A stretch of DNA of 62,411 bases, the filler included, from Dehalococcoidia bacterium (lineage in GTDB: Bacteria; Chloroflexota; Dehalococcoidia; DSTF01; RBG-16-68-14), in the NCBI GenBank assembly GCA_040882355.1. It is 3 parts of 3 records of this genome, joined end to end, with 100 filler letters (N's around TTAATTAATTAA, not from the genome) between each part and the next. Parts side by side here need not be neighbours in the genome. Positions count along the whole stretch, not along the records: positions 1 to 27,970 come from JBBEBM010000036.1; 2 more parts are not named here. One strand, given 5' to 3'. The notes under the pieces were generated by a model. The model ran no database searches. It was not told where the DNA came from and saw nothing but the letters and a program-made list of their open reading frames with translations. This document shows, piece after piece, positions 5,829 through 61,727 of the stretch; position 1 is the first letter of the stretch; the number at the start of each line of letters is the position of its first letter. The position numbers were made by a program, and so were the translations under genes.

Positions 5829-6588
5829 CGGCGAACCCCGGCTCGAGCCTGCGGAAGACGCCGCCGCCGATGGCGAGCGCGGCTGCCGTGAAGAGCAGGG
5901 CAGGCCAGACCTCCGCGAAGGCGAGTTGGTTCTCCATGAACAACTGGCGCCAGGCGTCGATGAGCGAAGTCATCGGGTTGATCTGCATCAGCGGGCGGTA
6001 CTGCTCCGGCACCAGGCCCAGCGGATAGAGGACGGGCGTGAGGTAGAAGAGCAGTTGCAGGAACACGTCCATCAGGTGCTCGAGGTCCCGGAAGTAGACG
6101 TCGATGGATGCGAGGAGCATGATCACGCCCATCAGCAGCGCCAGCTCCAGCGCCGCGAACATTGGGACGCCGATGAGCCACGTCCAGTCGGGGTAACGGC
6201 CGTCGATGGCCAGCAGCAGGATCAGGACCGGGATGCTGATGAAGAAGTGGACGCCATTGTTGAGCACGGTGGAGAAGGGCAGGACCAGGCGGGGAAACTG
6301 CACCTTCTTGAGCAGCGCGCCGTTTCCCGCGAACGACGGCGTCGCCAGAAGCACGGACGTTGAGAACCAGACCCAGGGGAAGAGGCCGGTGAGGAGGACC
6401 AGGTGGTAGTCATCGACCTCGATCCGCGCGAACTTGCTGAGGGCGACGAAGAGCACCGCCCCAAGCGCCAGGGGCTTGACGAGTGACCAGAGGAAGCCGA
6501 GAGCGGTGTCCTGATAGCGGAGCTTGAGGTCGCGCCGCGTGAGCAGGTAGAGGAGCTCCCACGCCCTGCCCGTGGGTCGGATCGATAT
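5818..6588 (-). CDS. wzm: Polysaccharide ABC transporter permease (Wzm), probably with a non-canonical ATA start
   Basis: The reading frame extends upstream of 6456 with WELLYLLTRRDLKLRYQDTALGFLWSLVKPL; also YFRDL and FYLTPVLYP motifs. Confidence 0.85.
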   Translation of the reverse strand: MSIRPTGRAWELLYLLTRRDLKLRYQDTALGFLWSLVKPLALGAVLFVALSKFARIEVDDYHLVLLTGLFPWVWFSTSVLLATPSFAGNGALLKKVQFPRLVLPFSTVLNNGVHFFISIPVLILLLAIDGRYPDWTWLIGVPMFAALELALLMGVIMLLASIDVYFRDLEHLMDVFLQLLFYLTPVLYPLGLVPEQYRPLMQINPMTSLIDAWRQLFMENQLAFAEVWPALLFTAAALAIGGGVFRRLEPGFADAL

Positions 6589-6749
6589 CGTCGGACACCT
6601 CGCTTCTGTGTGGTGATACAGCCTACCAGCCGCCTGGAGTCAGATCAACCGATTGGGCGATTGACAGCACTGCCTTGGTGCTGTTACGTTCGGAACTAGG
6701 GAGCGCCCCCTGCGGCGCCACCTGGACGAGGTCGAAGTCTTTGTTGAAG

Positions 6750-7415
6750 ATGGCTGCTGACGGACAGGCGGCGAGACTACCCGGCGAGGAACGCCCGGCG
6801 CTCCGCGGCTGGATCCACGTTGCCGCATTGCTGGCGGTGGTGGCAGGCGCGGCCTTGCTCCTCGTTGTGGCCGACTCGGCTCGCGCGTACGTCGGCGGCG
6901 CCATTTTCGCGGCCAGCCTCTTCCTCCTCTACGGTACCAGCGCGACCTACCACCGGGTCCAGTGGAGCCCGACGGCGCGCCGGGTCGTGAAGCGGCTCGA
7001 CCACGCGATGATCTTCGTCTTGATCGCCGGCACGTACACGCCCCTGTGCCTGCACGTGAGCCTGGCCTGGGGCATTCCGATGCTCTCCGTCGTCTGGGGG
7101 ATCGCCGGCGCAGGCATCGTCCTCAAGCTGTTCTGGCCGGACGGCCCCAGGTGGCTGAGCGTCGCGCTCTACGTCGCGCTAGGATGGTTGGCGCTGGCCG
7201 CGGTGTCCGAGCTCGTTACGTGGTTCAGCCCGGTAGAGCTTGCCATGTTGGGCCTGGGTGGGGCGCTGTACACCGTGGGAGGCCTGGTCTATGCGGTCCG
7301 CCGCCCCGATCCCTGGCCCCGCGTCTTCGGCTACCACGAGATCTTCCACCTGTTCGTCGTGGCGGGAAGCGCGCTCCACTACTCACTCGTCGTCATCGTC
7401 GTCCTGCCAAGCTAG
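6750..7415 (+). CDS. Hemolysin III / PAQR family membrane protein
   Basis: SATYH, KRLDHAMIFVLIAGTYTP and FGYHEIFH motifs. Confidence 0.92.
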   Translation: MAADGQAARLPGEERPALRGWIHVAALLAVVAGAALLLVVADSARAYVGGAIFAASLFLLYGTSATYHRVQWSPTARRVVKRLDHAMIFVLIAGTYTPLCLHVSLAWGIPMLSVVWGIAGAGIVLKLFWPDGPRWLSVALYVALGWLALAAVSELVTWFSPVELAMLGLGGALYTVGGLVYAVRRPDPWPRVFGYHEIFHLFVVAGSALHYSLVVIVVLPS

Positions 7416-7432
7416 CCGTTCGCATCTCCTCA

Positions 7433-7475
7433 GTGCCAGGCGCTCCTTGGCGCTCTGGCAGCGCTGCCCTACGTT
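7433..7475 (+). promoter_or_regulatory. Shared particle-gene promoter, copy 1 (GTGCCA-N8-TTGGCG-N17-TACGTT)
   Basis: Same architecture and spacing as the copies at 9563 and 13337. Confidence 0.7.
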
Positions 7476-7510
7476 CGAGGCATCTCGAATTTCGGAGGCA
7501 GGAGTACCCC

Positions 7511-8002
7511 ATGAGCGATGACGAGCTGACGGCGTTGCAAGAAGAGCTGGCGGCCGCGCGAGCGGAGATGGAACGGCTGCAGGCGACGGCCGCGGACAGC
7601 CAGGCGCGGGCAAGTCACCTGGACGCGCAACTCTCGGGACTGCGCGGGGAGCTGGAGGAGGGTCGCAGCCAGGCGCAGGCCGGCGAGGAAGCGCAGGCCC
7701 TGCTGCGGGAGCAGAGCGAGTCGCTGCAGACCCAGGTGCGAGGCTCGGCGCAGCGCTACCGAGAGCTGGCGCTGCGACAGGCGCCGGAGCTCCCGGCGGA
7801 CCTGGTGGCGGGCGACACGGTGGACGAAGTAGAGGAGTCCCTTCAGCGGGCGCGCGAGACGGTTGCCAGAGTGCGGGGCCACCTGGAGCAGCAGGCGCAG
7901 GCCGGCCGCGTGCCGGTGGGCGCACCTCCGCGCTCGGGACCTGACATGGCGGCGCTGAGCGCGGAGGACAAGATCCGCCTCGGTCTCCAGCAAGGCGGGT
8001 AA
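7511..8002 (+). CDS. Putative capsid scaffolding protein (coiled-coil)
   Basis: 163 aa with an acidic coiled-coil N-terminus and a Pro-linker plus terminal helix (PVGAPPRSGPDMAALSAEDKIRLGL); GGAG RBS; lies upstream of the capsid gene. Confidence 0.6.
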   Translation: MSDDELTALQEELAAARAEMERLQATAADSQARASHLDAQLSGLRGELEEGRSQAQAGEEAQALLREQSESLQTQVRGSAQRYRELALRQAPELPADLVAGDTVDEVEESLQRARETVARVRGHLEQQAQAGRVPVGAPPRSGPDMAALSAEDKIRLGLQQGG

Positions 8003-8075
8003 CTGCTGGCAGACGGACGCACTCGATGTTGAGGCGCCGTCGCCCGCGCCGGGCAGTGCGCTGTCTGGTTCGGCG

Positions 8076-8585
8076 TTACTCTTTGGAGGCAGCGGCTGCC
8101 GTTAGGGCCTCGGTGGGGACGCGGCGCACGAAGGCGACCTCAACGCTGCAGGGCGGCGTGTGGTCGGTCCCGGCGGCCATCAGGTGCACCACGATCCGTC
8201 CAGCGCTCAGGTCTGGCGCGACCTGACCGCTCTCGTCTGTCGTTGTATTCCAGAGGACGTGGACGTGGGCGAGGACCTCCTTGCCGTCGACGACGATTCC
8301 GGTGCTAGCAAGGTGCGTCGTGCCCGTGTTGCCGGTCCACGGCAGCGGGCCCTCATGGTCGTCCAACCAGGGCAGCAGGAACATCGGTGGGGACCAGCGA
8401 GTCCCACTGACTCCGCCCAGGCAGTCGGGGAGGGTGACGTTCGCAAGCTGGACCCGGGTCTCCTGGCCCTCCGTCACCCAGACGGCGGCGCTCGGCTCGC
8501 TGTCGCCGCGAGCGAGGGTCTCGCGCATGGCGAAAGCCACCACGAACCCCAGGAGAAATGCTCCGACGATTGCCGCGATACGCAT
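8076..8585 (-). CDS. Hypothetical secreted/membrane-anchored protein
   Basis: N-terminal hydrophobic signal MRIAAIVGAFLLGFVVAFAM. Confidence 0.6.
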   Translation of the reverse strand: MRIAAIVGAFLLGFVVAFAMRETLARGDSEPSAAVWVTEGQETRVQLANVTLPDCLGGVSGTRWSPPMFLLPWLDDHEGPLPWTGNTGTTHLASTGIVVDGKEVLAHVHVLWNTTTDESGQVAPDLSAGRIVVHLMAAGTDHTPPCSVEVAFVRRVPTEALTAAAASKE

Positions 8586-8820
8586 CGCTGTTAGAATCGT
8601 CCGTTTGCTGGCGCGCCTGTGATCCTGCGCCTTAGCTATACATAACTTCCCTCTGAGGGTAGCGGGTTACGTGGAGTTGTTTCGAAGATGTAACGCCGGC
8701 CCGAGGCGGGCGGGCGGCCCCGGGCGCGGGCGCCCTTGACACACGAATGGCGGTGCTATCTGTTGCCAGCATTGGCAGGGGCCGGCGCGGAGCCGTTAGT
8801 CCAAGGACGGAGGTCAAACC

Positions 8821-9492
8821 ATGCGGAAGCTGCTCCTAGTTGCGCTGGTGGCGCTTGCCCTACTGGGCATGCGGCCGCTGACGAGTCCGCCCTCTGCGGA
8901 GGCGAGTCACGTCGATCCAGTCCTGTTTGTCCACGGCTTCACGGGAAGCTCGAGCGCATGGAACACGATGATCCCGCGCTTCCAGGCGGATGGCTGGCAC
9001 AGCAACCAGCTCTTCGCGATCACGTACAACAGCTTCCAGTCCAACGCGACCATCGCCAACCAGATCAAGACGACGGTGAACCAGATCCGCGCCACCACTG
9101 GCGCAAGCAAGGTCGACATCGTGACACACTCAATGGGCGGGCTCTCCACCCGGTACTACCTCAAAAACCTGGGTGGCGCCGCCTTCGTCGACGACTGGGT
9201 GTCGTTAGCGGGACCGAACCACGGCACAATCTGGGCGTGGGGCTGCGCGTTCCTCACACCCTGTCTGCAGATGACGCCGGGCTCCTCGTTCCTCAACAGT
9301 CTCAACTCCGTTGACGAGACGCCGGGCGCGGTGAGCTACGGCACGTGGTGGTCCGCCTGCGACGAGATCATCACGCCCGATGAGAGCGTGATCCTTACCG
9401 GCGCGACGAACACGCAAACGAGCTGCCTGCTGCACTCGGGCTTGCTCACCAACCTGGCCGTGTACAACCAGGTGCGCGACTTCGTTCGCTAG
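8821..9492 (+). CDS. Secreted triacylglycerol lipase (lipase class 2, alpha/beta hydrolase)
   Basis: Signal peptide; PVLFVHG, THSMGG nucleophile elbow, GPNHGT. Confidence 0.9.
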   Translation: MRKLLLVALVALALLGMRPLTSPPSAEASHVDPVLFVHGFTGSSSAWNTMIPRFQADGWHSNQLFAITYNSFQSNATIANQIKTTVNQIRATTGASKVDIVTHSMGGLSTRYYLKNLGGAAFVDDWVSLAGPNHGTIWAWGCAFLTPCLQMTPGSSFLNSLNSVDETPGAVSYGTWWSACDEIITPDESVILTGATNTQTSCLLHSGLLTNLAVYNQVRDFVR

Positions 9493-9562
9493 CGACGACA
9501 CGCCTCCCTCCGCCATGCTGCGCCCCGCGATCATCGCGGGGCGCAGTTGCGTCTCGGACTGA

Positions 9563-9605
9563 GTGCCAGCATGCCGTTGGTCGTTCTTCGCGAACGGCGT
9601 ACCAT
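9563..9605 (+). promoter_or_regulatory. Shared particle-gene promoter, copy 2 (GTGCCA-N8-TTGGTC-N17-TACCAT)
   Basis: Same spacing as the copies at 7433 and 13337. Confidence 0.7.
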
Positions 9606-9649
9606 CGCCGTCGTCAAGCGTTCATCTCATTTCGACGGAGGAGGCGACG

Positions 9650-10537
9650 ATGGCTCTTACACTAAGCGAAGCGGGCAAGCTCTCGAACGACGTGCTCAAG
9701 GTGGGCGTGATCGAAACGGTGATCAAGGAAAGTCCGGTGTTGCAGACGCTGCCGTTCATCGAGATCGTTGGGAACGGCCTCACCTACAACCGGGAGAGTG
9801 TCGCAGCGGCGGCGGCCTTCTTCGATGTCGGCGATACGTGGACAGAGAGCACGCCGACGTTCACGCAGCAGACCGCGACGCTCAAGATCCTGGGCGGCGA
9901 TGCCGACGTCGACAACTTCCTGGTCGCCACGCGCAGCAACGTGCAGGACCTGGAGGCGGCGATCGTCCAGCTCAAGGCGAAGGCCGTCCAGCAGAAGTTC
10001 GACGACACGTTCGTCAACGGCGACGTCGGCGTGGACGCCAAGGCCTTCGATGGTATCGACAAGCTCACGACCTCGGGCCAGACGACAAGCATGGGGACGA
10101 ACGGCGGCACGCTCACGCTGGCCAAGCTGGATGAGCTGGTCGACCTGGTGCTGGGCGGCAAGCCGGACCTGCTGCTCATGAGCAAGCGGACGCGGCGCGC
10201 GCTCAACGGCCTGGCACGCACAGCGGGCGGCTTCCTGGAGACGGACCGCAACGAGTTTGGGCAGATGGTGCAGTTCTACGATGGCGTGCCCATCGGCATC
10301 TCCGACTACATCTCGGACGCCAAGACCGTCGGCACCAGCTCGGACTGCTCGACGATCTACGCGGTCCAGTTCGGCGAGGGCAGCGTCGCCGGCTTGACCG
10401 CGCCCGGCGGCCTGGAGGTGGAGCGCGTCGGCAGCCTGGAGACGCGCGACGCCACGCGGACGCGTGTGAAGTGGTACGTGGCGCTGGCGCTCTTCAACAC
10501 CCTGAAGCTGGCCAAGCTCACCGGCGTGCGGCCGTAA
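9650..10537 (+). CDS. Phage major capsid protein (HK97-like fold)
   Basis: MALTLSEAGKL...SPVLQTLPF..I.GNGLTYNRE...LGGDADVD.F...FVNGD...FDGI...YDGVPI...STIYAV.FG...RTRVKWY; GGAGGAGG RBS. Confidence 0.88.
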   Translation: MALTLSEAGKLSNDVLKVGVIETVIKESPVLQTLPFIEIVGNGLTYNRESVAAAAAFFDVGDTWTESTPTFTQQTATLKILGGDADVDNFLVATRSNVQDLEAAIVQLKAKAVQQKFDDTFVNGDVGVDAKAFDGIDKLTTSGQTTSMGTNGGTLTLAKLDELVDLVLGGKPDLLLMSKRTRRALNGLARTAGGFLETDRNEFGQMVQFYDGVPIGISDYISDAKTVGTSSDCSTIYAVQFGEGSVAGLTAPGGLEVERVGSLETRDATRTRVKWYVALALFNTLKLAKLTGVRP

Positions 10538-10558
10538 GCTTCAGTCGTCCGGCAGACT

Positions 10559-10597
10559 TAAGGGGAAGCCCTCCCTCTCGGCGAGGGCTTCCCCTTA
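10559..10597 (+). terminator. Hairpin after the capsid gene (probable terminator)
   Basis: Perfect 15-bp stem TAAGGGGAAGCCCTC/GAGGGCTTCCCCTTA. Confidence 0.7.
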
Positions 10598-10635
10598 TTC
10601 TGCGTCCGCGTCTCGTCTTGCTAGACTTAGCTGCC

Positions 10636-13305
10636 ATGCTACGTCGTTCGCTGATGTTTGCGGCGTTCCTGTTGCTGGCGTGCTTCGCATCATCCGCCGA
10701 TCCGAACCGCGCTGGCGCGTCTCGATCAGGTGCGGCTGCGGCGCTCATTACGGGCGAACGTCAGGCGGGCGGGCCCTCCTGTCCCGACGCGCTGGGCGAC
10801 CTGGCGCTCACCACGCCCGACAGCCAGGTGGCCGTGGAAGAGGAGGAGAACGGCGAGCCCTACCAGTTCTCGTTCTCGTGCCGCTACAGCGGAGGCGGCA
10901 TTAGAGCCTTTGTTGTGGCGTACTGGTCGCTGCGACAGGAGTCCATCCTGCTTACCGACCCCTGCGACGACCCCGGCGAGGTGCAGCAGAGCCCCGCCCT
11001 CGGAACGAGGGTGATCAGTTCGGGCCGCGTGGCCTACGTGAACTTCGACTTCGAGGTCACCGTTGAGGGCGCCGATCCGGAGCCGCTCGAAGGGCCGGCG
11101 GAAGCGGTGGCGCGGACGCTCCTGGCCGCCGTGGAGCCGATGGCCGCGCCGTGCGGAGCATCCGTGACGACCGTCACGCCTCCACCGCCGTTGCTGCCGC
11201 CTACCAACACGCCGCAGGAGCGTGGCGACTGCGCCTTCCGCGGCGTCGTCCGTGACGGAGGCGCTCGCCCGGACGGCCCGCCTGAACCGGAGGGCGATCC
11301 GCTCATCGGGGTGCGCATGTCGCTCCTCTTCAACGACACGGATGAAGAGGTACAGGTGGTCGCGAGCGACGACCAGGGCCGGTACGAGCTGTTCCTCGCC
11401 GAGAGCGATCTGCCGGCGGGCTTTGATCCGCAGACGAGCGACATTCGCGTTCGGTTGCGGCTGGAGGAGTACGCGCACAGCCCCTCGCGTTTCGCCATCA
11501 GCTCGGAAGGCCAACAGACGTCGTTGCTCAGCGATCCGATCATCCTGGCGAACGAGTGCGACGACGGCCTGGTTGAGCGCGACTTCCTCATCGCCGATCT
11601 GCCACCCGACTACTTCTACGAATGGCCGTTCGCCGACAAATGGGAAGCCCTTGCTGAGATCTACGATCGCGTCCACCGCGCTACGGCGCTGGCTGACCTG
11701 CTGCAGCAGCCGTTGGACTACGGTGGTCCGCTCATCATCAGCGCCTTCGCTAGCACCGTTGACGCCGGTGGCCAGCCGCTGGCCGACTTCGATGCGGCGT
11801 ACTGGCAGGGGTGCCTCTCGACCGGGCTCCAGTGCGACGAGCAGGTCTTCATTGCTCTGGGTCACGACACCAGTGAGCTGACGGATGGAGGCTGGCCCGA
11901 CAACCGCGAGTACCACGAGTTCGGCCACCACTTCCTCGCGGACGCCTTCAACAACGCGCAGCCGAGCAACCCCGGCGATGAGAACCATGCTGGCTACTAC
12001 GCCAACCCGAGCACGACCGACTCGTTCGGCGAAGGCTTCGCCGAGTTCTACTCGATGATGGTCTCGAAACACATCGACCGCCGTCCGGCGGCGCACTACT
12101 ATCGCGTCGAGGGCAGCTACTACGACATGGAGCTCGACTTCCGCCCCTGGCTCGGACTGGGAACCGCGGAAGAGCTTGGTATCGCCGGTTTGCTGCTTGA
12201 CCTCGAGGATGGCCCCGACGACTATGCCGTCGGCCGGGAGAACGCCGCCGTCGTCGTCGATTCGTACGACATCATCGATGACCCGGCCTACGGCCGCCTC
12301 ATCGTCGGCGAGGTGACGAATCGCGCTGATGCTCTTGAGTACAGCCAGCAGACAATGGTCGCCGCCGTCTTCCGCGATGAGGCGGACAACCAGGTGGACG
12401 TCGGATACGGAGTCACCGTGCCCTGGGACATCCCGGGTGGTGAAACCGCCTTCTTCCCGATCGCGTTCCCTGAGGATCTCGTCTACGACTCTGTGGAGGT
12501 CGTCGCCTTCGAAGGCCATCCCGGCAACGTGCTCACGGATGACGACCCCGTCGACCTCGATCTGCAGGAGGTCTGGGATACGATACGCGGCTACACGAGC
12601 GAGCACCCCAACAGCAACGGCTTCCTGTTCGACGTCGCCGACCTCTACGCCGCGTTCAGCGCGGCGCAGGGCCGGATGGACAACGATGGCGACGGCGTTG
12701 ACGACGTCGACCAGGTCTTCCGCGCCCATGGCTTCTTCGCCGATGTCGATGGGGATCGCAGCTTCAGCAACGACGCTGAGCTCGGCCGCACCGACCACCC
12801 CGCCTTTGAAGCGTTTCCGGCGCGCGTTCCTCGCCGCGATCTGCCGCCCATGCCTGGCAGTCTTGCCGCAATCACCGGGGCGGCGGCGGGAACCCGCGTC
12901 CTCGTGCAGGCGTCGCTTCCGGCGCCGAACGAGTACAGCGGCTATGCCTACGTTACGACCCCAGATGACGAGGGGTACGTCCACGTCACCGTCCCGCCGC
13001 CCGAATACGAGGCGACGGTAACCCTGATCGCCTTCGACGAGGGCAATTCCGCCACCCGGATCATTGGCGAGATCGATGGCGCAGCCTTCTGGGACCGGGT
13101 CGAGGCGAACGGCGGCGAGCCGTTCCTGACCTTCGACGCCGGCGGCCCGGCTGGTAGCAGCGTGCTTCCCGCCAATGACGATGGCGATGGCGGCTCTGAT
13201 TTACTCTGGCCCCTCCTTGGTGGCGCCGCCGCGGTGGTGATCGTGGGTTTCGTCGGCGCGTACCTCGCCTACCGTCGCAGGAAGCGCCTGCCGCTCTCGC
13301 CGTAA
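10636..13305 (+). CDS. Large secreted, C-terminally anchored putative zinc metallopeptidase with an FxLYD-like domain
   Basis: Signal peptide; HEFGH with a downstream EGFAEF; IVGEVTN..VAAVFRD; DNDGDGVDD; C-terminal TM helix followed by RRRKR. Confidence 0.7.
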   Translation: MLRRSLMFAAFLLLACFASSADPNRAGASRSGAAAALITGERQAGGPSCPDALGDLALTTPDSQVAVEEEENGEPYQFSFSCRYSGGGIRAFVVAYWSLRQESILLTDPCDDPGEVQQSPALGTRVISSGRVAYVNFDFEVTVEGADPEPLEGPAEAVARTLLAAVEPMAAPCGASVTTVTPPPPLLPPTNTPQERGDCAFRGVVRDGGARPDGPPEPEGDPLIGVRMSLLFNDTDEEVQVVASDDQGRYELFLAESDLPAGFDPQTSDIRVRLRLEEYAHSPSRFAISSEGQQTSLLSDPIILANECDDGLVERDFLIADLPPDYFYEWPFADKWEALAEIYDRVHRATALADLLQQPLDYGGPLIISAFASTVDAGGQPLADFDAAYWQGCLSTGLQCDEQVFIALGHDTSELTDGGWPDNREYHEFGHHFLADAFNNAQPSNPGDENHAGYYANPSTTDSFGEGFAEFYSMMVSKHIDRRPAAHYYRVEGSYYDMELDFRPWLGLGTAEELGIAGLLLDLEDGPDDYAVGRENAAVVVDSYDIIDDPAYGRLIVGEVTNRADALEYSQQTMVAAVFRDEADNQVDVGYGVTVPWDIPGGETAFFPIAFPEDLVYDSVEVVAFEGHPGNVLTDDDPVDLDLQEVWDTIRGYTSEHPNSNGFLFDVADLYAAFSAAQGRMDNDGDGVDDVDQVFRAHGFFADVDGDRSFSNDAELGRTDHPAFEAFPARVPRRDLPPMPGSLAAITGAAAGTRVLVQASLPAPNEYSGYAYVTTPDDEGYVHVTVPPPEYEATVTLIAFDEGNSATRIIGEIDGAAFWDRVEANGGEPFLTFDAGGPAGSSVLPANDDGDGGSDLLWPLLGGAAAVVIVGFVGAYLAYRRRKRLPLSP

Positions 13306-13336
13306 GCGTCCCGGGGCAGCCCTTCCGACTCTTCGG

Positions 13337-13379
13337 GTGCCAACGCCGCCTTCGCGCTTCCCGCGGGAGAGCGTACCCT
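13337..13379 (+). promoter_or_regulatory. Shared particle-gene promoter, copy 3 (GTGCCA-N8-TTCGCG-N17-TACCCT), nearly leaderless
   Basis: Same spacing as the other two copies; ATG follows 9 nt after the -10 element. Confidence 0.7.
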
Positions 13380-13388
13380 CGTTTCACC

Positions 13389-14024
13389 ATGAACCTGCCT
13401 GAGATGCGCGCACGGGTCCGCCGCGACCTCCACGACGAAGAGCCGGCCAGCCAGCGCTGGCGCGACCCAGAGCTCGATAGGCACATCGCGAGGGCGGTGC
13501 AGGAAGCGAGCGTCGCATCGCCCCAAGAGGTGAAGTCGACGCTGACGACGACGGCCGGCAGCCGCGACCTCGACATCAGCAGCCTGAGCGGCCGCGTCAG
13601 CATCGAGGCCGTCGAGCACCCGACAGGCCAGTTCCCGCCGTCGTACGTCCGCTTCTCGGTGTGGGGCGACACGCTCACGCTGCTGCTCGACTCGCCGCCC
13701 GCCGGCGCCGAGCAGGTCGCGGTGTACTACGGGGCGCTGCACAGCCTCGACGCGACGGGCTCGACCCTGCCCGCGGCCCTGGAGGACGTCGTGGCGACGG
13801 GCGCCGCGGCGTACGCCGCGCTCGCCTGGGCCAGCTTCGCCACGAATCGGGTGAACGCCGGCGGCGACGAGACCTGGCGCAACTACCTCGTCTTCGGGCA
13901 GGAACGGCTGGCCGCCTTCGCGCAGGCGCTCGCGGAGCAGGGCCGGAAGGGCGTCGTGCGCGCGCGACAGCTCTACACGCCCGCCGGGCCGGCGCCCATC
14001 CAGTCCAGCGGCGGGCTGGCCTAG
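13389..14024 (+). CDS. Putative phage head-completion/head-tail adaptor protein
   Basis: MNLPEMRARVRRDLHD...W.D.EL...I..A N-terminal helices resemble phage adaptor proteins; capsid context. Confidence 0.55.
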   Translation: MNLPEMRARVRRDLHDEEPASQRWRDPELDRHIARAVQEASVASPQEVKSTLTTTAGSRDLDISSLSGRVSIEAVEHPTGQFPPSYVRFSVWGDTLTLLLDSPPAGAEQVAVYYGALHSLDATGSTLPAALEDVVATGAAAYAALAWASFATNRVNAGGDETWRNYLVFGQERLAAFAQALAEQGRKGVVRARQLYTPAGPAPIQSSGGLA

Positions 14025-14039
14025 CCGACACGAGCACCC

Positions 14040-16036
14040 GTGCGCACGCTCACGCCCACGTTGCTCGCCGCTCAAATGGAGCCGAGCGCCGTCCCGTTCG
14101 TCAAGGTGACGCTGCGCGACCGCGTCGCGGATGTGCCGCGCTTGCGCTGGGAGCGCCTCTACACCGGCAGCGAGGCCGACCGCTATCACGCCGCCGTCAT
14201 GCCGGGCGACGGCTCGTTGCTACGGGCGCGCATCGACCCGAGCGGCCCGACGCTCCGCTACCAGCGCGTCGCGAGCCCGGGACCGGGTGCCGCCTTCGAC
14301 TCGTGGACGGACCTGGATGACACGGCAGATGCCGGCGTCGCGATCGCGGCGTCAGGTGCGCATGTGCTGCTCGCATACGTCGCGCCGAACGGCATCCACA
14401 TCCGCATCCGCGAGAGCAGCGACAACGGCGCGACGCTTGGGTCGGTCGAGACGGCGGTCGGCGCGTCCGCGACGGTCGGCTGGCTGGCCGCCGCTATCAA
14501 GAGCGACGGCGTGGCGCTGCTCGTCTACTCGGCGGGCGGCGCCGTGTACACGGCGAAACGCGTGTCGGGATCGTGGGGTTCGTCCGTCGCGTGGCCTCAC
14601 AGCGCCGGCCAGATCACCGGCCTCGCGGTGACGCGACCGGGCGACTACGACCTCGCGATCGCCGGCGTCGACACGGGCGGCGCTGCGCGGCTGTGGACGG
14701 CGACGTACGGCGACGGCTTCGGCCAGACCGTCGACACTTGGTCGGCGCTGCGCGAGGTGGCGAAGGCGGACAGCGGCTCGGCTGTCGGGCTGCGCGCGCC
14801 CAGCCTCGGCGCGCTCGACACGCACCGGCTGTTCTTCGTCGAGGAGTATACGGGCAGCGTCGCCTACTCGCGGCCGTACTGGACGTGGTCTTCGCCGGGC
14901 CAGACGCTCGCCGAGAACGCGTGGCGGGAGCCCGTGCCCTTCGACCTGAGCAGCTCCTATGGCGTCGCGCTCACGGGCTCGGGTGCGAAGGCCTGGCTCT
15001 CGACGCCGGCCGGCGTCTGGCGTTCGCCGCTGGCGACGCCGGAGCTGGACGTGAGCGATGACGTGCTCGAACTGGCGACCGAGACGCGCCGCGCGTCAGG
15101 CCGCGCGCGCGTCGTGCTGCGCAACGACGATGGTCGTTACAACGCGCTGCCCGCCACAATCCGAGCAGGCGCGGAGCTGGCGATCAGCTCCGGCTACGTC
15201 TCCGATGTCGGCGTGGAGGTCTCGGCCGGGCCGCGCCACTGGGTGCAGGGCTGGGAGTACGCGTCGTCTGGTGGCGAGGCGACGCTCACGCTGCTTGCCG
15301 CCGACGCCTGGTCGCTGGTCGAGGCGTGGCGGGCGCGGCGCCAGTACGAATGGTCCGCGGGCAGCGAAAGCGTAGCGCAGGTCCTGCGCTTCGTTTCCGG
15401 TCGGGCGGGCGTGGGGGGGGGGGGGGGGGGGGGGCCCCCCCCCCNNNNNNNNNNGGGGGCGCCTGCTCGACCGCCACCGGCCACCGGCCCGCTTTCACCA
15501 TCCATCCCGGCGAGGACGGCCTTCGCGTCGTTCAGCGCCTCCTCGCGCTGACGCCCGATGTCGTGCTCGTGTCGGGCGCTGCCGCGCTGCTCTTCGAGCC
15601 GCTCGCCGGCGATGCTGCCGTCGCTGCTTACGGCATGGACCAGCCGATCCTGCGCGCGCGCTTCGCCTCCGCGGGGCTGCGCGCGAACCGGGTCCAGGTC
15701 TTCGGGCAAGGCGTAGTCGCCGAGAGCTTCGACTGGGACGACGTCGCCGACCGGCTCGACGGGCTGCGCCAGGTGCATGACCTCAACCTGTCATCGACAT
15801 CGCTGGCAACCGCCCGGGCGACGGCGTCGCTGCGCCAGGAGGAGCTGTCGCTGTCGCGCGGCGAGCTGGTCGCGCCCGTGCACTGCGGCCTGGAGCTGTA
15901 CGACGTGGTCTCGGTGACCGACCCGCGGGCCGGTCTGGCAAGCGCGACCTTCAGGGTTGCTGGCCTTGACCTGCGCTACGTTCGTCGGGCCCGCTCGCCC
16001 GTGTACGAGCAGCGGCTGCTCCTGGGCAGCGTGTGA
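14040..16036 (+). CDS. Putative virion structural protein: beta-rich N-terminal domain plus baseplate/tail-hub-like C-terminal domain (interrupted by a scaffold gap)
   Basis: ORFs 14040-15551 and 15326-16036 join across the poly-G/C and N gap at about 15413-15459; GRARVVLRNDDGRY and GLELYDVVSVTD...FRVAGLDLRY...YEQRLLL resemble hub proteins. Confidence 0.55.
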
Positions 16037-16045
16037 GGTGGGGCG

Positions 16046-16258
16046 ATGACGGTGCGACGAGGGATAATGAAGGCGTTCGACGGCACGAGCTACACGGCGA
16101 CGGTGCAGGTAGTGGGGAGCCTGGCGGTCTGGCTGACGGGCGTCGCCGTCGCGCGGAATATCGCCTCGGCCGAGCTCGTGGCGGGTCGCCGCTGCGCCGT
16201 TCTCTTCTTCGACGACCAGAACCCCCAGGACGCCGTTGTGATCGCGGTGTACACCTAG
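16046..16258 (+). CDS. Small OB-fold-like protein, putative spike/baseplate component
   Basis: 70 aa, G.MKAFD..SYTATVQ...WLTGVAV...GRRCAVLF.D..P.DAVVIAV, resembling the gpV/gp5 N-terminal OB domain. Confidence 0.5.
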   Translation: MTVRRGIMKAFDGTSYTATVQVVGSLAVWLTGVAVARNIASAELVAGRRCAVLFFDDQNPQDAVVIAVYT

Positions 16259-16377
16259 GCGCGCTGGAATCGATGCTCCAGAGCAGGGTGGTATAATGGC
16301 GGCCGAGATGGCCTGTCTGAGCAAGGAAGCTACCCCTCTTACTCCGCTGGCCAAGCCGAGCCTCTCGTCTGCGCACC

Positions 16378-17412
16378 ATGACCTCTGACCGCATCCTCGC
16401 AGGCGCGCCCAGGGACGAGGACGAGCCGTTCGAGACGTCGCTTCGCCCGCGACGGCTCGAGGACTACGTCGGCCAGGACAAGGTCAAGGAGAACCTGCGC
16501 ATCGGCATCGCCGCGGCACAGCAGCGCGGCGAGCCGCTCGACCACGTCCTGCTCTACGGCCCGCCCGGTCTGGGCAAGACGACGCTGGCTAACATCATCG
16601 CAGGCGAGATGGGGGTGAGCATCCGCACCACCTCCGGTCCTGCGATCGAGCGGCCGGGCGACCTCGCCGCGATCCTCACGAACCTCCAGCCCGACGACGT
16701 GCTCTTCATCGACGAAGTGCACCGGCTTGCTCGCGCCGTCGAGGAGATCCTCTACCCCGCGATGGAGGACTACGCGCTCGACCTCGTGCTCGGCAAGGGG
16801 CCGGGCGCGCGCAGCGTGCGCCTGGCGCTGCCGCGCTTCACGCTCATCGGCGCGACGACGCGCTACGCCATGATGAGCGCGCCCCTGCGCGATCGCTTCG
16901 GCGCCGTCTACCGCCTCGACTTCTACGATGTTGAAGCCATCGCCACGATCTTGCAGCGCTCGGCGCAGATCCTCGGCGTCGAGCTGGACGACGACGGCAG
17001 GATGGAGATCGCTCGCCGGTCGCGCGGGACGCCGCGGGTGGCGAACCGGCTGCTCAAGCGCGTCCGCGACTTCGCCCAAGTGATGGCGGACGGCTCGATC
17101 ACGTCTGACGTGGCGAGCGAGGCGCTGACGCGGCTCGAGATCGACAAGCTCGGCCTGGACGAGGTCGACCACAAAGTGCTGCGCGCGATCGTCGACAAGT
17201 TCAACGGCGGCCCGGTGGGCCTCGAGACGCTCGCCGCCTCGATCTCCGAGGAAGCCGACACGATCATGGACGTCTACGAGCCGTACCTCCTCCAGCTCGG
17301 CTTCCTCCACCGCACGCCGCGCGGCCGCGTCGCCACGCGCTCTGCGTACGAGCACCTGGGCGTGCCACCGCATGGGCGTACCCCCGGCGGTCAGGGCAGC
17401 CTCTTCGAGTGA
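16378..17412 (+). CDS. ruvB: Holliday junction branch migration helicase RuvB
   Basis: [35 protein letters not shown] and EPYLLQ motifs. Confidence 0.98.
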
Positions 17413-17454
17413 CGCCGCGTTGCCGCCCCGCCGTGGCGATGGCACACTAAGAAG

Positions 17455-18654
17455 ATGGACGCCTCGTATCCGCTGGGTGCGCAAGCCAGAGCGCGGGTGC
17501 GACCGAGGTTCGCCGCCCTGCGTCGCGGCTGGCCGCTCGCGCTGGCGCTGGCGGTGATCGCAGTGCTGGGTGCGGGCTTTGTGTTTTCTCCGTACGGCCG
17601 CGCGGCAACGGTATCCGCGCTCGTGCTGCCCGACATGCTCGTCGATCTGCCGGTGCGGCCGATCACGTGGGTGACGCCGGAGCCGGTCGTCGAGCACACC
17701 GTTATCGACTACGGCTCCGGGTCGATGGTGGCCGACATCTACCGCCCGGGTGACGGTGAGCGCCACGGCGCTGTCGTCTTCTCGATGGGTGCGCCGCCAC
17801 TCGACCTCGATGACTCGCGCCTCGTGAAGCTGGGCAAGGACGTGGCGCGTGCGGGACTGGTGATGGTCGTGCCGTTCTCGGAGCGGCTCGACGCGGAGAT
17901 GATCGAGCCGGAGGAGGCGGACGCGCTTGCCGGCGTGTTCGACTACGCGGCCGGCCAGCCCTACGTCGACCCGGACCGCGTCGGCTATATCGGCGTTAGC
18001 GTTGGTGGCTCGCTCGCGCTGCTGGCGGCCGCTGATCCGCGCATCGCCGACCGCGTCGACTACGTCGTGAGCTTCGGCGGCTACTATGATGGACTCGATA
18101 TTCTGGTGGCGGTCGCGTCGCGCGACATCGCCTACGACGGACAGGCGGAGGAGTGGGACCCGGACCCCCACACCGTGCGCGTCATCGCCCGCCAGATCAT
18201 CGTGGAGCTGCCGGACGCTAACGATCGCGCCGTGCTAACGAGGGCGTTCGTGCGGCACCGGGACGTGAGCGAGGCGGAGGTGGAGGGCCTGACGCCGGAA
18301 GGTCTTGCTGTCTACGAGTTCATGACGAGCGCTGACGAGGCTGAGGCGTTGGCGCTACGCGATCGGCTCCCGCCTGCCGTGCTCACGAAGATGGCGCGCC
18401 TCTCGCCGAGCCGGTCGATCGACGATGTCAAGGCGGAGCTGTTTATCATCCACGACAAGGGCGACAAGTTCATCCCGTACGTGGAGTCGCGGCGCCTGCG
18501 CGATGCGCTCGCGAGCCGGGGAGACGCGCACTTCACGGAGGTGTCGCTCTTCGAACACGTTGAGCCGCGCCTGAGCCGTGGCGGCGATGTGCTCGTCCTC
18601 GACGGCGCGCGGCTGTACTTCCGGCTCTACCAGTTGCTGCTGAAGTTGTCTTGA
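17455..18654 (+). CDS. Membrane-anchored alpha/beta hydrolase
   Basis: N-terminal TM helix; GVSVGG nucleophile motif; IIHDKGDKFIP. Confidence 0.75.
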   Translation: MDASYPLGAQARARVRPRFAALRRGWPLALALAVIAVLGAGFVFSPYGRAATVSALVLPDMLVDLPVRPITWVTPEPVVEHTVIDYGSGSMVADIYRPGDGERHGAVVFSMGAPPLDLDDSRLVKLGKDVARAGLVMVVPFSERLDAEMIEPEEADALAGVFDYAAGQPYVDPDRVGYIGVSVGGSLALLAAADPRIADRVDYVVSFGGYYDGLDILVAVASRDIAYDGQAEEWDPDPHTVRVIARQIIVELPDANDRAVLTRAFVRHRDVSEAEVEGLTPEGLAVYEFMTSADEAEALALRDRLPPAVLTKMARLSPSRSIDDVKAELFIIHDKGDKFIPYVESRRLRDALASRGDAHFTEVSLFEHVEPRLSRGGDVLVLDGARLYFRLYQLLLKLS

Positions 18655-18722
18655 CGAGCCGGCGGGGGGGNNNNNNNNNNCCCCCCCCCCCCCCCTCGAC
18701 GCCGCTCCGCGCGCTGTCCCCG

Positions 18723-55589: not shown

Positions 55590-56517
55590 GCGTCGGCGTC
55601 GGCGTGTCGGTCGGCGTCGGCGTCGGCGTGTCGGTCGGCGTCGGCGTCGGCGTGTCGGTCGGCGTCGGCGTCGGCGTGTCGGTCGGCGTCGGGGTCGACG
55701 TATTCGTCGGTGTCGGCGTTGACGTATTCGTCGGTGTCGGCGTTGACGTATTCGTAGCGGTCGGAGTTGGGGTCTTGGTCACGGTTGCCGTCTTAGTGGG
55801 CGTCGGAGTCTTCGTCGCCTTCGGCGGCGTCGACGTCTTCGTGGGCGTCGGTGTCTTGGTGGCCTTGGGGGGCGTCGGTGTCTTGGTGGCCTTGGCCGGC
55901 GTCGACGTCTTCGTGGCCTTCGGAGGCGTGGCTGTCTTCGTCGCCTTGGCCGGCGTCGACGTCTTCGTGGCCTTCGGAGGCGTGGCCGTCTTCGTCGCCT
56001 TGGCCGGCGTCGGCGTCTTCGTGGCCTTCGGAGGCGTGGCCGTCTTCGTCGGCGACTTCTTGCTGTAGCAGAAGGTGACATGGCTGAGACCGTAGGGCTT
56101 GTTTCCGTTCATCGGTGCGTGGAGCTCTTCATCTCCGAACGAACGCGCGGGCGGATTGTAGGTGTAGACGTTGGCGTTGGGGCCGCCCTTGACGATCACG
56201 ACATCCATGCCGAGCGTGGACGTCCAGTCGAAGTACTTCTCGTCAACGTTGCTGAGCGTCACGGAGTGCTTCACGCCGTTTGCAGTGAAGGAATAGGTGC
56301 CGCTTTCGACGGGTTCGATCTTGATGGCTTGAACCAGGTCCGACCGAATGTCGTCGCAGTCCACATTCTGACTTGAGTGCGTGAGTACCGGTTCGAGCGA
56401 CGCAGAATGCGATGGCCGGGCATGCACCACCTGGAATGCAACCAGCACGGCGACGGCGAGGAACGCCGCGAAGGTGAGGAGCTGTTTTCGCTGAGTCTGC
56501 TTCCATAGCGTGCGCAT
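55590..56517 (-). CDS. Secreted protein with Pro/Thr-rich repeats (3' partial)
   Basis: Signal peptide, small Cys-bounded domain, then TKTATPPKA and TPTPTD repeats. Confidence 0.8.
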
Positions 56518-56641
56518 GAGGTTACCTCTGAGCTTCCGGATGACGGCGGGGAGTTAGCCACCCATTCTGACCACACAGCATGTTCTGCTTCCTAACGCAC
56601 TGCAGGGCCCGTTCGTAACAGGGGCGGGGCTGGGAAGGTGG

Positions 56642-57346
56642 CTAGTCTTCGCGGGCGAAGGCGAGCGCCCGGACAGAGGCGGCGCCCGCAGCCTTGAGCG
56701 CCCCGGCGCACGCCGCCAGGGTCGCGCCGGTCGTCGTCACGTCGTCGACGAGAAGAACACGGCGGCCGGCCAGCGATGCGTCCCGGCAGGCGAAGGCGCC
56801 CGCCACGTTTCGGCGGCGCGCCTCGGCATCGGCGGAGCGCGCCTGAGGCGGGGTGTGGCGCTTACGAACGAGCGCGCGGGGCTCTACGAGCACGCCCAGC
56901 TCCTCCGCCAGCGCCCTCGCGAGCAGCTCCGCCTGGTTATAGCCGCGCGTTCGTTTACGCAGGCCGGAGAGGGGCACCGGAACGACGACATCGAACGATT
57001 CGCGCGCCGCGGCACCGGTGAGCAGCGATGCCATGGGCGCGGCGAGGACGGTCATGCCGCGGTACTTGAGAGCGTGGACGACCTCGCGGGCGACGCCTTG
57101 ATACACGAAGCCAGCGCGCAAGGCGTCGAAGGCCGGCGGCGCGAGCCGGCAGTCGAAGCACTCGCCGGCGTCGGGGCCAGGCCGCCAGCAGCGCGGGCAG
57201 CGCGGCGGCGATGCCTCGACAAGGGCGCTGGCGCAGCCTGCGCAGAGGAAGGCGCCTGCGGCGCCGCACACGGCGCAGCGAGGCGGAAACAGCAGATCGA
57301 GCGCGGCGCGACCCAGCGACCGGGCCAGGGAGGTAGTTGTCGCCAT
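56642..57346 (-). CDS. comF: ComF family amidophosphoribosyltransferase-like protein
   Basis: LLFPPRC..C, RGYNQA and LLVDDVTTTGAT motifs. Confidence 0.92.
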   Translation of the reverse strand: MATTTSLARSLGRAALDLLFPPRCAVCGAAGAFLCAGCASALVEASPPRCPRCWRPGPDAGECFDCRLAPPAFDALRAGFVYQGVAREVVHALKYRGMTVLAAPMASLLTGAAARESFDVVVPVPLSGLRKRTRGYNQAELLARALAEELGVLVEPRALVRKRHTPPQARSADAEARRRNVAGAFACRDASLAGRRVLLVDDVTTTGATLAACAGALKAAGAASVRALAFARED

Positions 57347-57417
57347 TAGCGGCTCCCTTCGAAGTCGGCGGCAGCGTAGCAGGCCACGTGCTGACGGCAC
57401 AACGCCAGCCCGCAAGC

Positions 57418-57451
57418 TTGACAGAACGGCCTCAACACCGTACATTCGTTC
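57418..57451 (+). promoter_or_regulatory. Sigma70-type promoter upstream of rplI
   Basis: TTGACA-N17-TACATT, overlapped by GTAC-N4-GTTC. Confidence 0.6.
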
Positions 57452-57617
57452 TGAGGACGACGTGAAGGCGTTTGCCGCTTTGGTATGTGGAAAGATAACG
57501 CCGTCTACCAAGCGAAGAAGACGCCGGATCGCATTGACCGTGATCGGGAGCGACCCGCTATCATGGACTTATCGGTGCCCGCAGGACGGGCGCCGTCCTC
57601 GTTAAGGAGAGCCAGCC

Positions 57618-58220
57618 ATGAAAGTCGTATTCCTCAAGGACGTTGAAGGCACCGCGCAGGTGGGCGACGTGAAGGACGTGAAGAACGGGTTCGCGCGCAA
57701 CTTCCTGCTGCCCAGGGGCCTGGCCGGTCCGGCCGTCGAGCCGTACCTGCAGCGGGCCGGGGCGCGGGCCGTACGCGAGGCGAAGCAGCAGGCGGTGCTC
57801 GACCAGGACGCGGCGGGCATCGCCGAGTTGCTCGAAGGCGCGCGCATCACGATCATCGCGAAGGTGGGCGAGCAGGGTAAGCTCTACGGCTCCGTCACCA
57901 GCCTCCATATCGCCGAAGAGGTGGCGAAGCTGATCGGGGCTGAGGAGATCGACCATCGCAAGGTGCTGCTGCCTGAGGCGATCAAGGAGACGGGCATCCA
58001 GCCGGTCCGCGTCCGCCTCACACGCAACGTCGAAGCCGCGATCGAGGTCGAGGTGCTTGGCGAGGGCGAGGAGCCGAGCACCGACGAGCCGGAGGCGAGC
58101 GCCGAGGAGGGTGAGGCCGAGGTCATTGAGGAGGCTGAGGCAGTCGAGGGCGAGACCGAGGCGGAGGTCGAAGAGACCGAGGCCGAAGGCGAGGAAGCGG
58201 CGTCTGAGGACGGGGAGTGA
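57618..58220 (+). CDS. rplI: 50S ribosomal protein L9 with acidic tail
   Basis: MKVVFLKDV...VKNGFARNFLLP and GKLYGSVT motifs. Confidence 0.96.
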   Translation: MKVVFLKDVEGTAQVGDVKDVKNGFARNFLLPRGLAGPAVEPYLQRAGARAVREAKQQAVLDQDAAGIAELLEGARITIIAKVGEQGKLYGSVTSLHIAEEVAKLIGAEEIDHRKVLLPEAIKETGIQPVRVRLTRNVEAAIEVEVLGEGEEPSTDEPEASAEEGEAEVIEEAEAVEGETEAEVEETEAEGEEAASEDGE

Positions 58221-58381
58221 GGTACACGGTCATCTTCGAACGGACGCCCAACAACTACTCAGCCTACGTACCTGACCTTCCGGGCTGCGTGGCCACCGGC
58301 AGCACCCGCAGCGAAGTCGAGCGGCGCATTCACCAAGCCATCACACTCCATCTGGAAGGACTTGGGAAGACGGCGCCTTGA
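58217..58381 (+). CDS. HicB family antitoxin-like protein (54 aa)
   Basis: MRYTVIFERTPNNYSAYVPDLPGCVATGSTRSEVERRIHQAITLHLEGL; absent from the ORF track. Confidence 0.85.
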   Translation: MRYTVIFERTPNNYSAYVPDLPGCVATGSTRSEVERRIHQAITLHLEGLGKTAP

Positions 58382-58581
58382 CGACCACTGACACCGAGTA
58401 CGCGGACACTCTGAAGGCGGCGCAGCGCGAGCTGACGGAGGCCGCCACGGCGGACGACGTGCGGCGCGTCTGGCGCAAGCACATGGGGGTCCTGGGACAC
58501 CGGGCGATGGGCCGGCTCCTGCTCGGAAGGTCCGCGGACGAACTGCTCGTGCGGCGCAGCGGCCGCGGCGAGCGCGACTAA
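58378..58581 (+). CDS. Hypothetical protein (67 aa)
   Basis: Helical ORF whose TTG start overlaps the hicB stop. Confidence 0.6.
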   Translation: MTTTDTEYADTLKAAQRELTEAATADDVRRVWRKHMGVLGHRAMGRLLLGRSADELLVRRSGRGERD

Positions 58582-58666
58582 CCAAGATTCGTCATTGCGG
58601 GGCTTCGCCCTGCTGAGCAAGGGGCACCGAGAGTCGACATGACCAGTCGCAAGGACCGCGCGCTCC

Positions 58667-60040: not shown

Positions 60041-60048
60041 GAGTAGCG

Positions 60049-61527: not shown

Positions 61528-61698
61528 CCGACTCGACTTCACCCAGTCCCGTAGCGCCCGCCTCCCCGGACTGAATAGGAGGTTCGCACCGGCGTGGCGC
61601 ACCGGTGGCGGAAGCGCAGTCCAGGCGGAGGCGAACGTTAAGAAGTCACGAAATCGAGAGCTTTACGAATTATCGACGAAAATCTTCACGTCAGATAC

Positions 61699-61727
61699 TT
61701 GACATCGTCGATCCAGTTTCTTACACT
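61699..61727 (+). promoter_or_regulatory. Sigma70-type promoter
   Basis: TTGACA-N17-TACACT. Confidence 0.65.

Follow-up and report, generated by a model that had tools for sequence, protein, structure and literature searches.

Particle genes of phage origin kept by Dehalococcoidia probably encode a gene transfer agent-like system

Gene transfer agents (GTAs) are known from a handful of lineages, mainly Alphaproteobacteria. In that of Rhodobacter capsulatus (RcGTA), for which gene transfer has been demonstrated, phage-derived head, packaging and tail genes lie in the chromosome at several loci under common host control, exercised by a CtrA/GafA circuit; they include an HK97-type capsid gene of family PF05065, are inherited vertically under purifying selection, and are not accompanied by integrase or replication genes. 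The PBSX particle of Bacillus subtilis is likewise chromosomal and not self-transmissible, responds to stress through SOS-linked control and packages host DNA, with a contractile tail, genes grouped in one block and a narrow group of hosts. Here we analyse a stretch of 62,411 nt from a Dehalococcoidia bacterium (assembly GCA_040882355.1), hereafter the window, which carries genes for a scaffold-like protein, a major capsid protein (MCP), a head-to-tail adaptor, a baseplate hub and a 70-aa protein (p70), and we compare it with related genomes. These genes are one copy of an old, inherited particle gene set, kept as host genes by many Dehalococcoidia, and we consider it probable that the set encodes a domesticated, DNA-packaging, GTA-like particle of independent origin and not a dying prophage.

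The Dehalococcoidia set shares the general plan of RcGTA described above, including the HK97-type capsid, the spread over several loci under what appears to be common control, and the absence of integrase and replication genes. It differs in belonging to another phylum and in its apparently independent origin; the nearest MCPs of cultured phages, which are from siphoviruses, show 39–44% identity, and a tblastn search of 50,697 phage records (E ≤ 1e-3) matched neither hub nor adaptor. Pfam and PHROGs reveal no tail tube, tape measure, head protease, sheath or toxin domain among the conserved genes; head spikes are missing too, and of a tail there remain the adaptor, the hub and a small protein with an oligonucleotide/oligosaccharide-binding (OB) fold. 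In place of the CtrA/GafA circuit we find a three-part promoter, often with a LexA-type box, and, unlike RcGTA, the set is known from its genes alone. Judged by what is generally known of RcGTA, the different host phylum and the lack of tube, tape measure and protease place the set outside the RcGTA family. It also departs from PBSX, in that it has no sheath or tube, extends across the class and is interrupted by host genes; moreover, the window lacks the LexA-type box that SOS-linked control would involve. A literature search, covering result listings, returned no description of this element or of a GTA in Dehalococcoidia, Chloroflexi or Chloroflexota; the preprint 10.64898/2026.09.15.751708 treats another element.

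The window joins three contigs by runs of N (1–27970, 28071–55489 and 55590–62411) and has a G+C content of about 68% throughout. Its reading frames were chosen by G+C content at third codon positions (GC3) and then scanned against Pfam and PHROGs. An earlier note on this DNA had placed five intact, co-oriented particle genes in the first contig, and the open reading frames (ORFs) bear out all five positions, on the plus strand. The MCP gene (9650–10537, 295 aa) matches PF05065 (Phage_capsid) with 41.4 bits, above the cut-off of 24.2, and phrog_212 'major head protein' with E = 1.4e-76; its start at ATG 9650 agrees with the relatives, whose matches begin around residues 26–30 of the longer ORF 9563–10537. 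Upstream of it lies the gene for a coiled-coil, scaffold-like protein of 163 aa (7511–8002), weakly similar to phrog_1793 'head scaffolding protein' (E = 4.7e-4), and downstream that for the adaptor of 211 aa (13389–14024), residues 1–184 of which cover positions 1–181 of the 194 in PF24175 (SU10_adaptor; E = 6.3e-11, 43.5 bits, cut-off 27). The hub protein, with an inserted six-bladed beta-propeller, is encoded at 14040–16036, and p70, modelled by AlphaFold2 as an OB fold and perhaps serving the hub as a plug or spike base, at 16046–16258. Intactness was borne out for four of the ORFs, but that of the hub enters an assembly gap of 10 N (15445–15454) and changes frame beyond it. The part after the gap (15455–16036) corresponds to the C-terminal third of what is in relatives a single ORF of ca. 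660 aa, and the gap zone (15396–15470) is without contig cover, contigs of four runs ending there. The composition is host-like, as the note had held: GC3 of the genes in the region is 0.84–0.94, matching their neighbours.

For comparison we used 80 loci (L001–L080), the best 80 of 152 MCP relatives at one genome per species of the Genome Taxonomy Database, which are 70–82% identical and come nearly all from records named Dehalococcoidia or Chloroflexota; L049 belongs to a MAG recorded as Thermoflexus hugenholtzii. By tblastn, the scaffold gene was found directly upstream of the MCP gene in 60 loci, the adaptor in 56, the N- and C-terminal parts of the hub in 52 and 49, respectively, and p70, always after the hub, in 41; in 12 loci ruvB is no more than 10 kb away from the set. 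Gene order is constant across loci, and a compact block of scaffold, MCP, adaptor, hub and p70 genes is common. In full, the order in relatives is a 106-aa protein, a putative terS, terL, a 109-aa protein, the portal, scaffold, MCP, in some cases a 126-aa protein, adaptor, hub and p70. The set thus comprises some 8–11 genes, and the view of the earlier note that the system is minimal has to be given up. The optional protein is a family-less ORF of 126–132 aa between MCP and adaptor in 18 of the 80 loci (e.g. L012:10919-11299); it is missing from the window, where a metalloprotease gene takes that slot. Tandem short repeats, with units such as CCAGTGA/CCAGTAA or GGTTCTA, fill the spacer between scaffold and capsid genes in several loci (L013, L017, L036, L067, L014 and L030).

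The portal, of 434 aa, was reached via sub-threshold matches to PF13264 (DUF4055) in two complete genomes, and it matches PF05133 (E = 8.4e-24) and phrog_64 (E = 2e-28 to 5e-31). Upstream of the portal the relatives carry a divergent terL of ca. 465 aa, a candidate small terminase of ca. 110 aa and two small ORFs. The terminase families PF03237 and PF03354 found no match in five complete relatives, because terL is too divergent, and we located it through synteny; it matches Terminase_6C below the cut-off (E = 9e-4, 19.6–19.8 bits against 22.6) and, weakly, phrog_9, phrog_38 and phrog_5909. All 14 aligned sequences keep the Q motif LRPYQ, a Walker A-like ARQ.GKNE and a Walker B LE.DE without change, and likewise the acidic residues of the nuclease. 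Each of five complete genomes contains exactly one PF05065 match. In two complete chromosomes terL and portal are ca. 400 kb away from the capsid locus; the whole set spans ca. 10–17 kb in other relatives. Four loci on long contigs or complete chromosomes are flanked by host genes (among them DnaJ, ClpB, FtsK, uracil-DNA glycosylase, valyl-tRNA synthetase, DprA and thiolase), and Pfam scans of these four and of the window contig detected no integrase, primase or excisionase and no genes for replication or lysogeny.

To gauge the distribution of the set, we sampled 400 genomes of the class, searching for the MCP at E ≤ 1e-10 and for terL by profile, with RuvB as a detection control; one of these (G249) is unpublished, and none of our conclusions depends on it by itself. 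The MCP was detected in 222 genomes, mostly as one copy with 60–83% identity, terL in 263 and RuvB in 378. MCP and terL occur together in 208 genomes, the MCP alone in 14, most of which are fragmented metagenome-assembled genomes (MAGs), terL alone in 55, and neither in 123. The set is common in the class, not universal. The earlier note had feared homologues that are patchy or found only in complete prophages; instead, complete chromosomes carry the set in host context.

Some genomes contain several terL copies. The complete genomes G025 and G107 (L185–L193) each possess four full-length paralogues, which share 77–82% nucleotide identity inside one genome and are in synteny from one species to the other; a terS-like gene accompanies three of them, one adjoins ruvB, and a single paralogue sits with the portal near the only capsid locus. 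Some other genomes also carry terL in 4–5 copies. As to virus databases, IMG/VR classes 98 hub relatives as viral contigs, and the 80 that we kept (L105–L184) are all of 4–27 kb; they resemble fragments of this chromosomal set, not phage genomes.

The genes of the set are under purifying selection. Median ratios of nonsynonymous to synonymous substitution (dN/dS), estimated by the method of Nei and Gojobori (NG86), are 0.24 for the MCP (2339 pairs), 0.28 for the portal and 0.33 for terL, compared with 0.36 for the ruvB control, 0.37 for the adaptor, 0.48 for p70, 0.55 for the scaffold and 0.57–0.58 for the hub; because the extreme GC3 compresses dS, the absolute values are inflated and rough, and it is the comparison with ruvB that counts. 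By the same method, then, the MCP evolves more slowly than a housekeeping control and not neutrally, as the note had anticipated. Stop-free high-scoring segment pairs range from 29 of 30 copies for the scaffold to 54 of 54 for the adaptor; for the MCP they were 71 of 80, because the query had a non-coding N-terminal extension. Together with the spread across the class, the uninterrupted ORFs and the dN/dS of the MCP sustain the claim of a conserved particle system that is kept by its hosts and is not a decaying prophage.

Several observations point to inheritance with the host genome. The G+C content of MCP genes follows that of their flanks over the range 0.51–0.73 (r = 0.88, 63 loci, mean difference 0.001). 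Trees of MCP and RuvB, built for the ten taxa whose loci contain both, agree in the two main clades and in one subclade; in each tree the window clusters with L020 and L076, and MCP branches are shorter than those of RuvB. Six genomes have a RuvB with 78% identity or more to that of the window, and the MCP of every one of them is 74–83% identical, including cases where the two genes lie 290–390 kb apart or on different contigs. Within the set, MCP distances are correlated with those of portal, terL, hub, adaptor and p70 (r = 0.64–0.89). The congruence with the host that the note looked for is therefore supported, to a moderate degree once the class-wide rank correlation given below is taken into account.

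Each of the three fragments of the set in the window is preceded by a copy of one promoter, on the plus strand: GTGCCA-N8-TTGGCG-N17-TACGTT (7433–7475), 35 nt before the scaffold gene, GTGCCA-N8-TTGGTC-N17-TACCAT (9563–9605), 44 nt before the capsid gene, and GTGCCA-N8-TTCGCG-N17-TACCCT (13337–13379), 9 nt before the adaptor gene. The copies are alike at motif positions only, and the pattern GTGCCA-N8-TTNNNN-N17-TACNNT has exactly these three matches in 62 kb; since it was written after seeing the sites, independent support comes from the relatives. There, 33 of 60 loci have an element of the form G[TC]G[AC]..-N8-TTGACA-like-N17/18-TAnnnT before the scaffold gene, against 0.25 in shuffled sequences, and in three out of five cases the three-part promoter precedes the packaging operon's first gene. 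With a stricter form of the pattern, 47 of 64 matches in 1.39 Mb of loci are upstream of particle genes, and most of the remaining 17 are likewise so by eye. Among 57 adaptor genes examined, that of the window is the only one with its own promoter copy, which sits precisely where the metalloprotease gene separates it from the capsid gene; likewise, MCP genes that are separated from the scaffold gene also have their own copy (8 of 75). A consensus scan of 6400–17600 for sigma-70 promoters and terminators gave results at chance level.

In many relatives the promoter overlaps a second motif. The sequence AGAAC-N4-GTTCT, allowing up to one mismatch, lies in the spacer and overlaps the -10 element in 26 of 60 scaffold promoters, compared with 1.6 in shuffles, and in four of five packaging-operon promoters. 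Motifs of the type GAAC-N4-GTTC we take to be the LexA box of Gram-positive bacteria and of Dehalococcoides, although a literature search turned up no paper to confirm it. This box is missing from the window and from a GC-rich subgroup with a TTGGAG-type -35 element, and L076, the closest relative of the window, keeps it at terL and not at the scaffold gene. Judging from these motifs, the SOS control suggested by the LexA-type box in relatives does not extend to the window.

Other genes may be found behind the same kind of promoter. In L075 (4923-5600) a lexA gene (Peptidase_S24 and LexA_DNA_bind) is directly upstream of the MCP gene, behind a GTGACA-N8-TTGACA element; the upstream promoter element is therefore not exclusive to particle genes. 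A transglutaminase-like protein of 218–221 aa follows a particle-type promoter with a LexA-type box in L040 (17786-18451) and L016 (15742-16398), and a 768-aa patatin-like phospholipase and a 780-aa family-less protein follow a box-less promoter (L024:14682-16988 and L030:14438-16780, respectively). Two of the genes behind extra promoter copies have no Pfam match. These additional genes are candidates for functions in release or lysis.

The earlier note had asked whether the proteins flanking the capsid might model as non-virion folds; Foldseek, VIA-align and the models themselves indicate a virion hub fold for the hub and an OB barrel for p70. We modelled the hub on its closest full-length relative, from L076 (53% identical), and not on the gapped copy of the window, using 36 aligned sequences; the model has a mean predicted local distance difference test (pLDDT) score of 94.8 and a predicted template modelling (pTM) score of 0.92. 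Foldseek matches it to Mu gp44, the MuSo2 43-kDa tail protein, VgrG, T4 gp27 and the hubs of extracellular contractile injection systems (eCIS), Photorhabdus virulence cassettes (PVC) and the antifeeding prophage (AFP), with E from 1.3e-14 to 1e-8, as well as to BFVD models annotated 'tail protein', 'phage protein D' and 'Mu gpP'. In VIA-align the hub fold spans residues ca. 10–652, with a best Z of 26.6 (root-mean-square deviation (rmsd) 3.1, 319 residues aligned) and, over the known hubs, Z of 24–27, rmsd of 3.0–3.6 and about 300–320 residues. Inserted at ca. 42–332 is the propeller, which resembles fucose lectins (Z = 25.8, rmsd 2.7, 257 residues aligned) and sialidases (Z = 23). No sequence family of Pfam or PHROGs matched the hub, and its profile has no significant sequence match in the PDB; on the strength of the predicted structure, it is a hub of the Mu gp44/T4 gp27/VgrG type.

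For p70 the AlphaFold2 model is a five-stranded OB barrel (pLDDT 92.3). Its top Foldseek matches are P2 gpV (E = 3.1e-3, TMq 0.65), T4 gp5 and the Mu and PVC spikes, with E = 3e-3 at best, although the OB folds of IF1 and PAN score alike; a profile search of the PDB gave a single weak match (4jiw_D, E = 0.007). In four loci the same OB domain forms the N-terminus of longer proteins of 223–525 aa (L078:2930-4114, L080:2623-4200, L073:14568-15629 and L020:13560-14231), which match no Pfam family and may be spike or fibre extensions.

This pair is comparable to Mu gp44/gp45, T4 gp27/gp5, P2 gpD/gpV, VgrG and the hubs of eCIS and PVC, with which it shares the hub fold and a following OB gene, in the order known for Mu gp44–gp45. 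It differs from them by the six-bladed propeller within the hub, by a 70-aa OB protein without beta-helix needle, whose resemblance to spike OB domains is weak (E = 3e-3) and common to IF1 and PAN, and by the podovirus-type adaptor that directly precedes the hub, without tube or sheath genes. The head and connector genes, in turn, recall modules of short-tailed phages of the SU10/T7-like type, where portal, scaffold, MCP and adaptor are likewise followed by one large tail-tip protein; a member of the SU10_adaptor family, a separate scaffold and the lack of a head protease are also shared. The difference is that the large protein is here a gp27-type hub and not a nozzle, and that there are no fibres, internal core or non-structural phage genes. 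The tail tip therefore combines a podovirus-type adaptor with a gp27-type hub.

Between these genes the window contains others that are foreign to the set, as the earlier note had described. A 169-aa protein with an N-terminal hydrophobic segment and no family is encoded on the minus strand at 8076–8585; a class-2 lipase, an alpha/beta hydrolase (PF01674, Lipase_2, E = 2.9e-19), on the plus strand at 8821–9492; and an anchored protein of 889 aa (from M56) on the plus strand at 10636–13305. The latter, the metalloprotease mentioned above, has a HEFGH zinc-protease motif, a signal-like N-terminus and a C-terminal membrane anchor, and found no Pfam family above cut-off and no significant sequence match in the PDB. 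None of the three has relatives in any of the 80 loci by tblastn, and they are therefore lineage-specific insertions. A near-perfect GC-rich hairpin (9513–9553) lies directly after the lipase gene and directly before the second promoter copy.

The set is bordered downstream by ruvB (16378–17412, plus strand; RuvB_N, E = 4.8e-80), where the note had it end, followed by genes for an S9 peptidase, adenosine deaminase, acyl-CoA dehydrogenase and uvrB; the upstream flank encodes HlyIII, an ABC transporter and methyltransferases (all by Pfam). Beyond the particle genes, Pfam scans of contig 1–27970, with a few small ORFs left out, detected cellular families only and no integrase, terminase, portal or tail tube, which agrees with the note on the missing mobility and packaging genes; nor did we find a tRNA gene or an att-like flanking repeat in this contig. 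A second gap of 10 N is at 18671–18680. The arrangement is reproduced by independent contigs: in other samples of the same study, identical contigs run across the junctions between lipase and MCP (two other samples) and between metalloprotease and adaptor, another sample matches 7896–8783, including the 169-aa gene, without differences, and in what is probably the source run a single contig covers MCP, metalloprotease, adaptor and hub. In this check, contig joints with a short side were read as other organisms or repeats.

From these data we propose how the system might work. The set would have been acquired by the forebear of much of the Dehalococcoidia, and inherited and maintained since. 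A dedicated promoter before every fragment, overlapped by a LexA-type box in many relatives, would turn on all the fragments together. Scaffold and capsid protein would assemble a procapsid on the portal, which the terminase would fill with DNA; this would presumably be host DNA, because the set has neither replication nor excision genes and its parts can be hundreds of kb apart. The adaptor would then close the portal, and a trimeric gp27/gp44-like hub with lectin- or sialidase-like propellers, capped by the OB protein, would form a very short tail tip, able to bind glycans on the surface of a recipient. In the window, the set has been split twice by inserted cell-surface genes, each piece with its own promoter copy. 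Going further, we tentatively suggest, as a possibility that we hold with less confidence than the GTA-like nature itself, that much of the class Dehalococcoidia possesses a GTA, nearly tail-less and domesticated independently, whose promoter is re-created for each fragment, is wired to LexA in many lineages and has been rewired here, and that in some lineages 4–5 terS–terL paralogues serve one capsid set. These terL paralogues might start packaging at different chromosomal sites.

A number of observations weigh against a GTA-like particle maintained by the host. The system is known here from genes and predicted folds alone, and not from particles, packaging or transfer. The earlier note had taken a terminase and portal elsewhere as pointing to a GTA, and their absence as pointing to a compartment; the former applies in relatives, where both belong to the set and accompany the MCP in 208 of 222 genomes, but not in the window, in whose 62 kb tblastn found no match to the terL, portal, putative terS or small ORFs of relatives. 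In the complete chromosome of G001 (L037) MCP, adaptor, hub and p70 are kept, and searches with single proteins or profiles at E ≤ 0.01 found neither terL nor portal; in G005 the two are fragmented. Genes for head and tail tip can therefore persist without packaging genes. The Walker A-like motif of terL, ARQ(G/A)GKN, ends in N in 15 of 15 sequences (e.g. L012:5212-6603), where S or T is usual. Equally unfavourable is that the conserved set has no lysis gene, tail fibre or maturation protease, and that hub, scaffold and p70 seem, from their substitution ratios (0.48–0.58), to be under moderate constraint only. An MCP match is missing in 178 of the 400 genomes of the class, compared with 22 for RuvB, and the class-wide rank correlation of MCP and RuvB identities is modest (Spearman 0.34, 58 genomes in both tables). 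Finally, the chance figure of the window promoter pattern is not independent, for the reason given above, and AGAACN4GTTCT with up to one mismatch has a single, chance-level match in the window, at 61868, and none at the promoters.

These points leave room for other explanations. One, which we regard as unlikely, is a stress-induced defective phage or killer particle similar to PBSX, or a suicide module, acting in competition, DNA release or population control without productive transfer. The LexA-type boxes that overlap the -10 element in many relatives, the lexA gene directly upstream of the MCP gene in L075, the transglutaminase- and patatin-like genes behind the same promoter type in some loci and the similarity of the hub-plus-OB tip to membrane-attacking spikes would all fit it; however, a pure killer would have no need of the ATPase and nuclease motifs that the terminase keeps, the conserved set lacks sheath, tube and toxin domain, and the window has no LexA box. 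As PBSX also packages host DNA, this explanation and a GTA are inseparable by our analysis. A capsid-based compartment, or another shell that does not package DNA and retains adaptor, hub and OB protein as a plug, would account for the MCP being the best conserved member, slower than RuvB, for the gene content of G001 and for the 14 of 222 MCP-positive genomes without terL match. We consider it rather improbable, because most of these 14 are fragmented MAGs, terL with its catalytic motifs accompanies the MCP in the other 208, and we know of no seat for adaptor and hub, as found in the necks of tailed phages, where the portal is missing. Encapsulins do offer a precedent for an HK97-fold shell protein maintained by the host; in contrast, the MCP matches phage capsid families only, with no encapsulin family in Pfam at E ≤ 0.01, and it comes with scaffold, portal, terminase, adaptor and hub, no cargo gene being seen.

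Still less probable, in our view, is a satellite-like or otherwise mobile element with heads of its own, for which a helper phage would provide tails, lysis and spread. Genes for heads, packaging and connector are present while tube, fibres and lysis are missing, hub relatives are filed as viral contigs and terL reaches 4–5 copies in some genomes, all of which could be expected from such an element. But the window contig and the four scanned loci contain no integrase, primase or excisionase, and the window contig has no tRNA gene or att repeat; the parts of the set are up to ca. 400 kb apart, its composition matches the host, the MCP tree agrees with that of RuvB, and the IMG/VR contigs are all short. 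The terL paralogues, for their part, are old and syntenic in two species, and not recent transpositions. As for a common prophage remnant in decay or a chimeric assembly, the window does hold only a fragment of a phage gene set, interrupted by unrelated genes and with one gene crossing an assembly gap, but we give it hardly any credence: uninterrupted ORFs are conserved across hundreds of species with an MCP dN/dS below that of ruvB, complete chromosomes show the same order, independent contigs bridge the junctions, and each fragment has its promoter copy. The order in complete chromosomes, the spread in the class, the dN/dS values and the bridged junctions contradict both the remnant and the chimera.

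If the set is indeed an independent GTA, it would provide the Dehalococcoidia, which are abundant and mostly uncultured in sediments, aquifers and oceans, with a built-in route for gene exchange, and would be a fresh case for studies of phage domestication. The particle would be unusually simple, with a capsid plus adaptor, hub and plug, and hence attractive for structural work, and the promoter copy before each split fragment is a clear and testable mark of host control. In practical terms, virus-detection pipelines file these loci as viral, which may inflate the counts of prophages and of virus–host links for the class.

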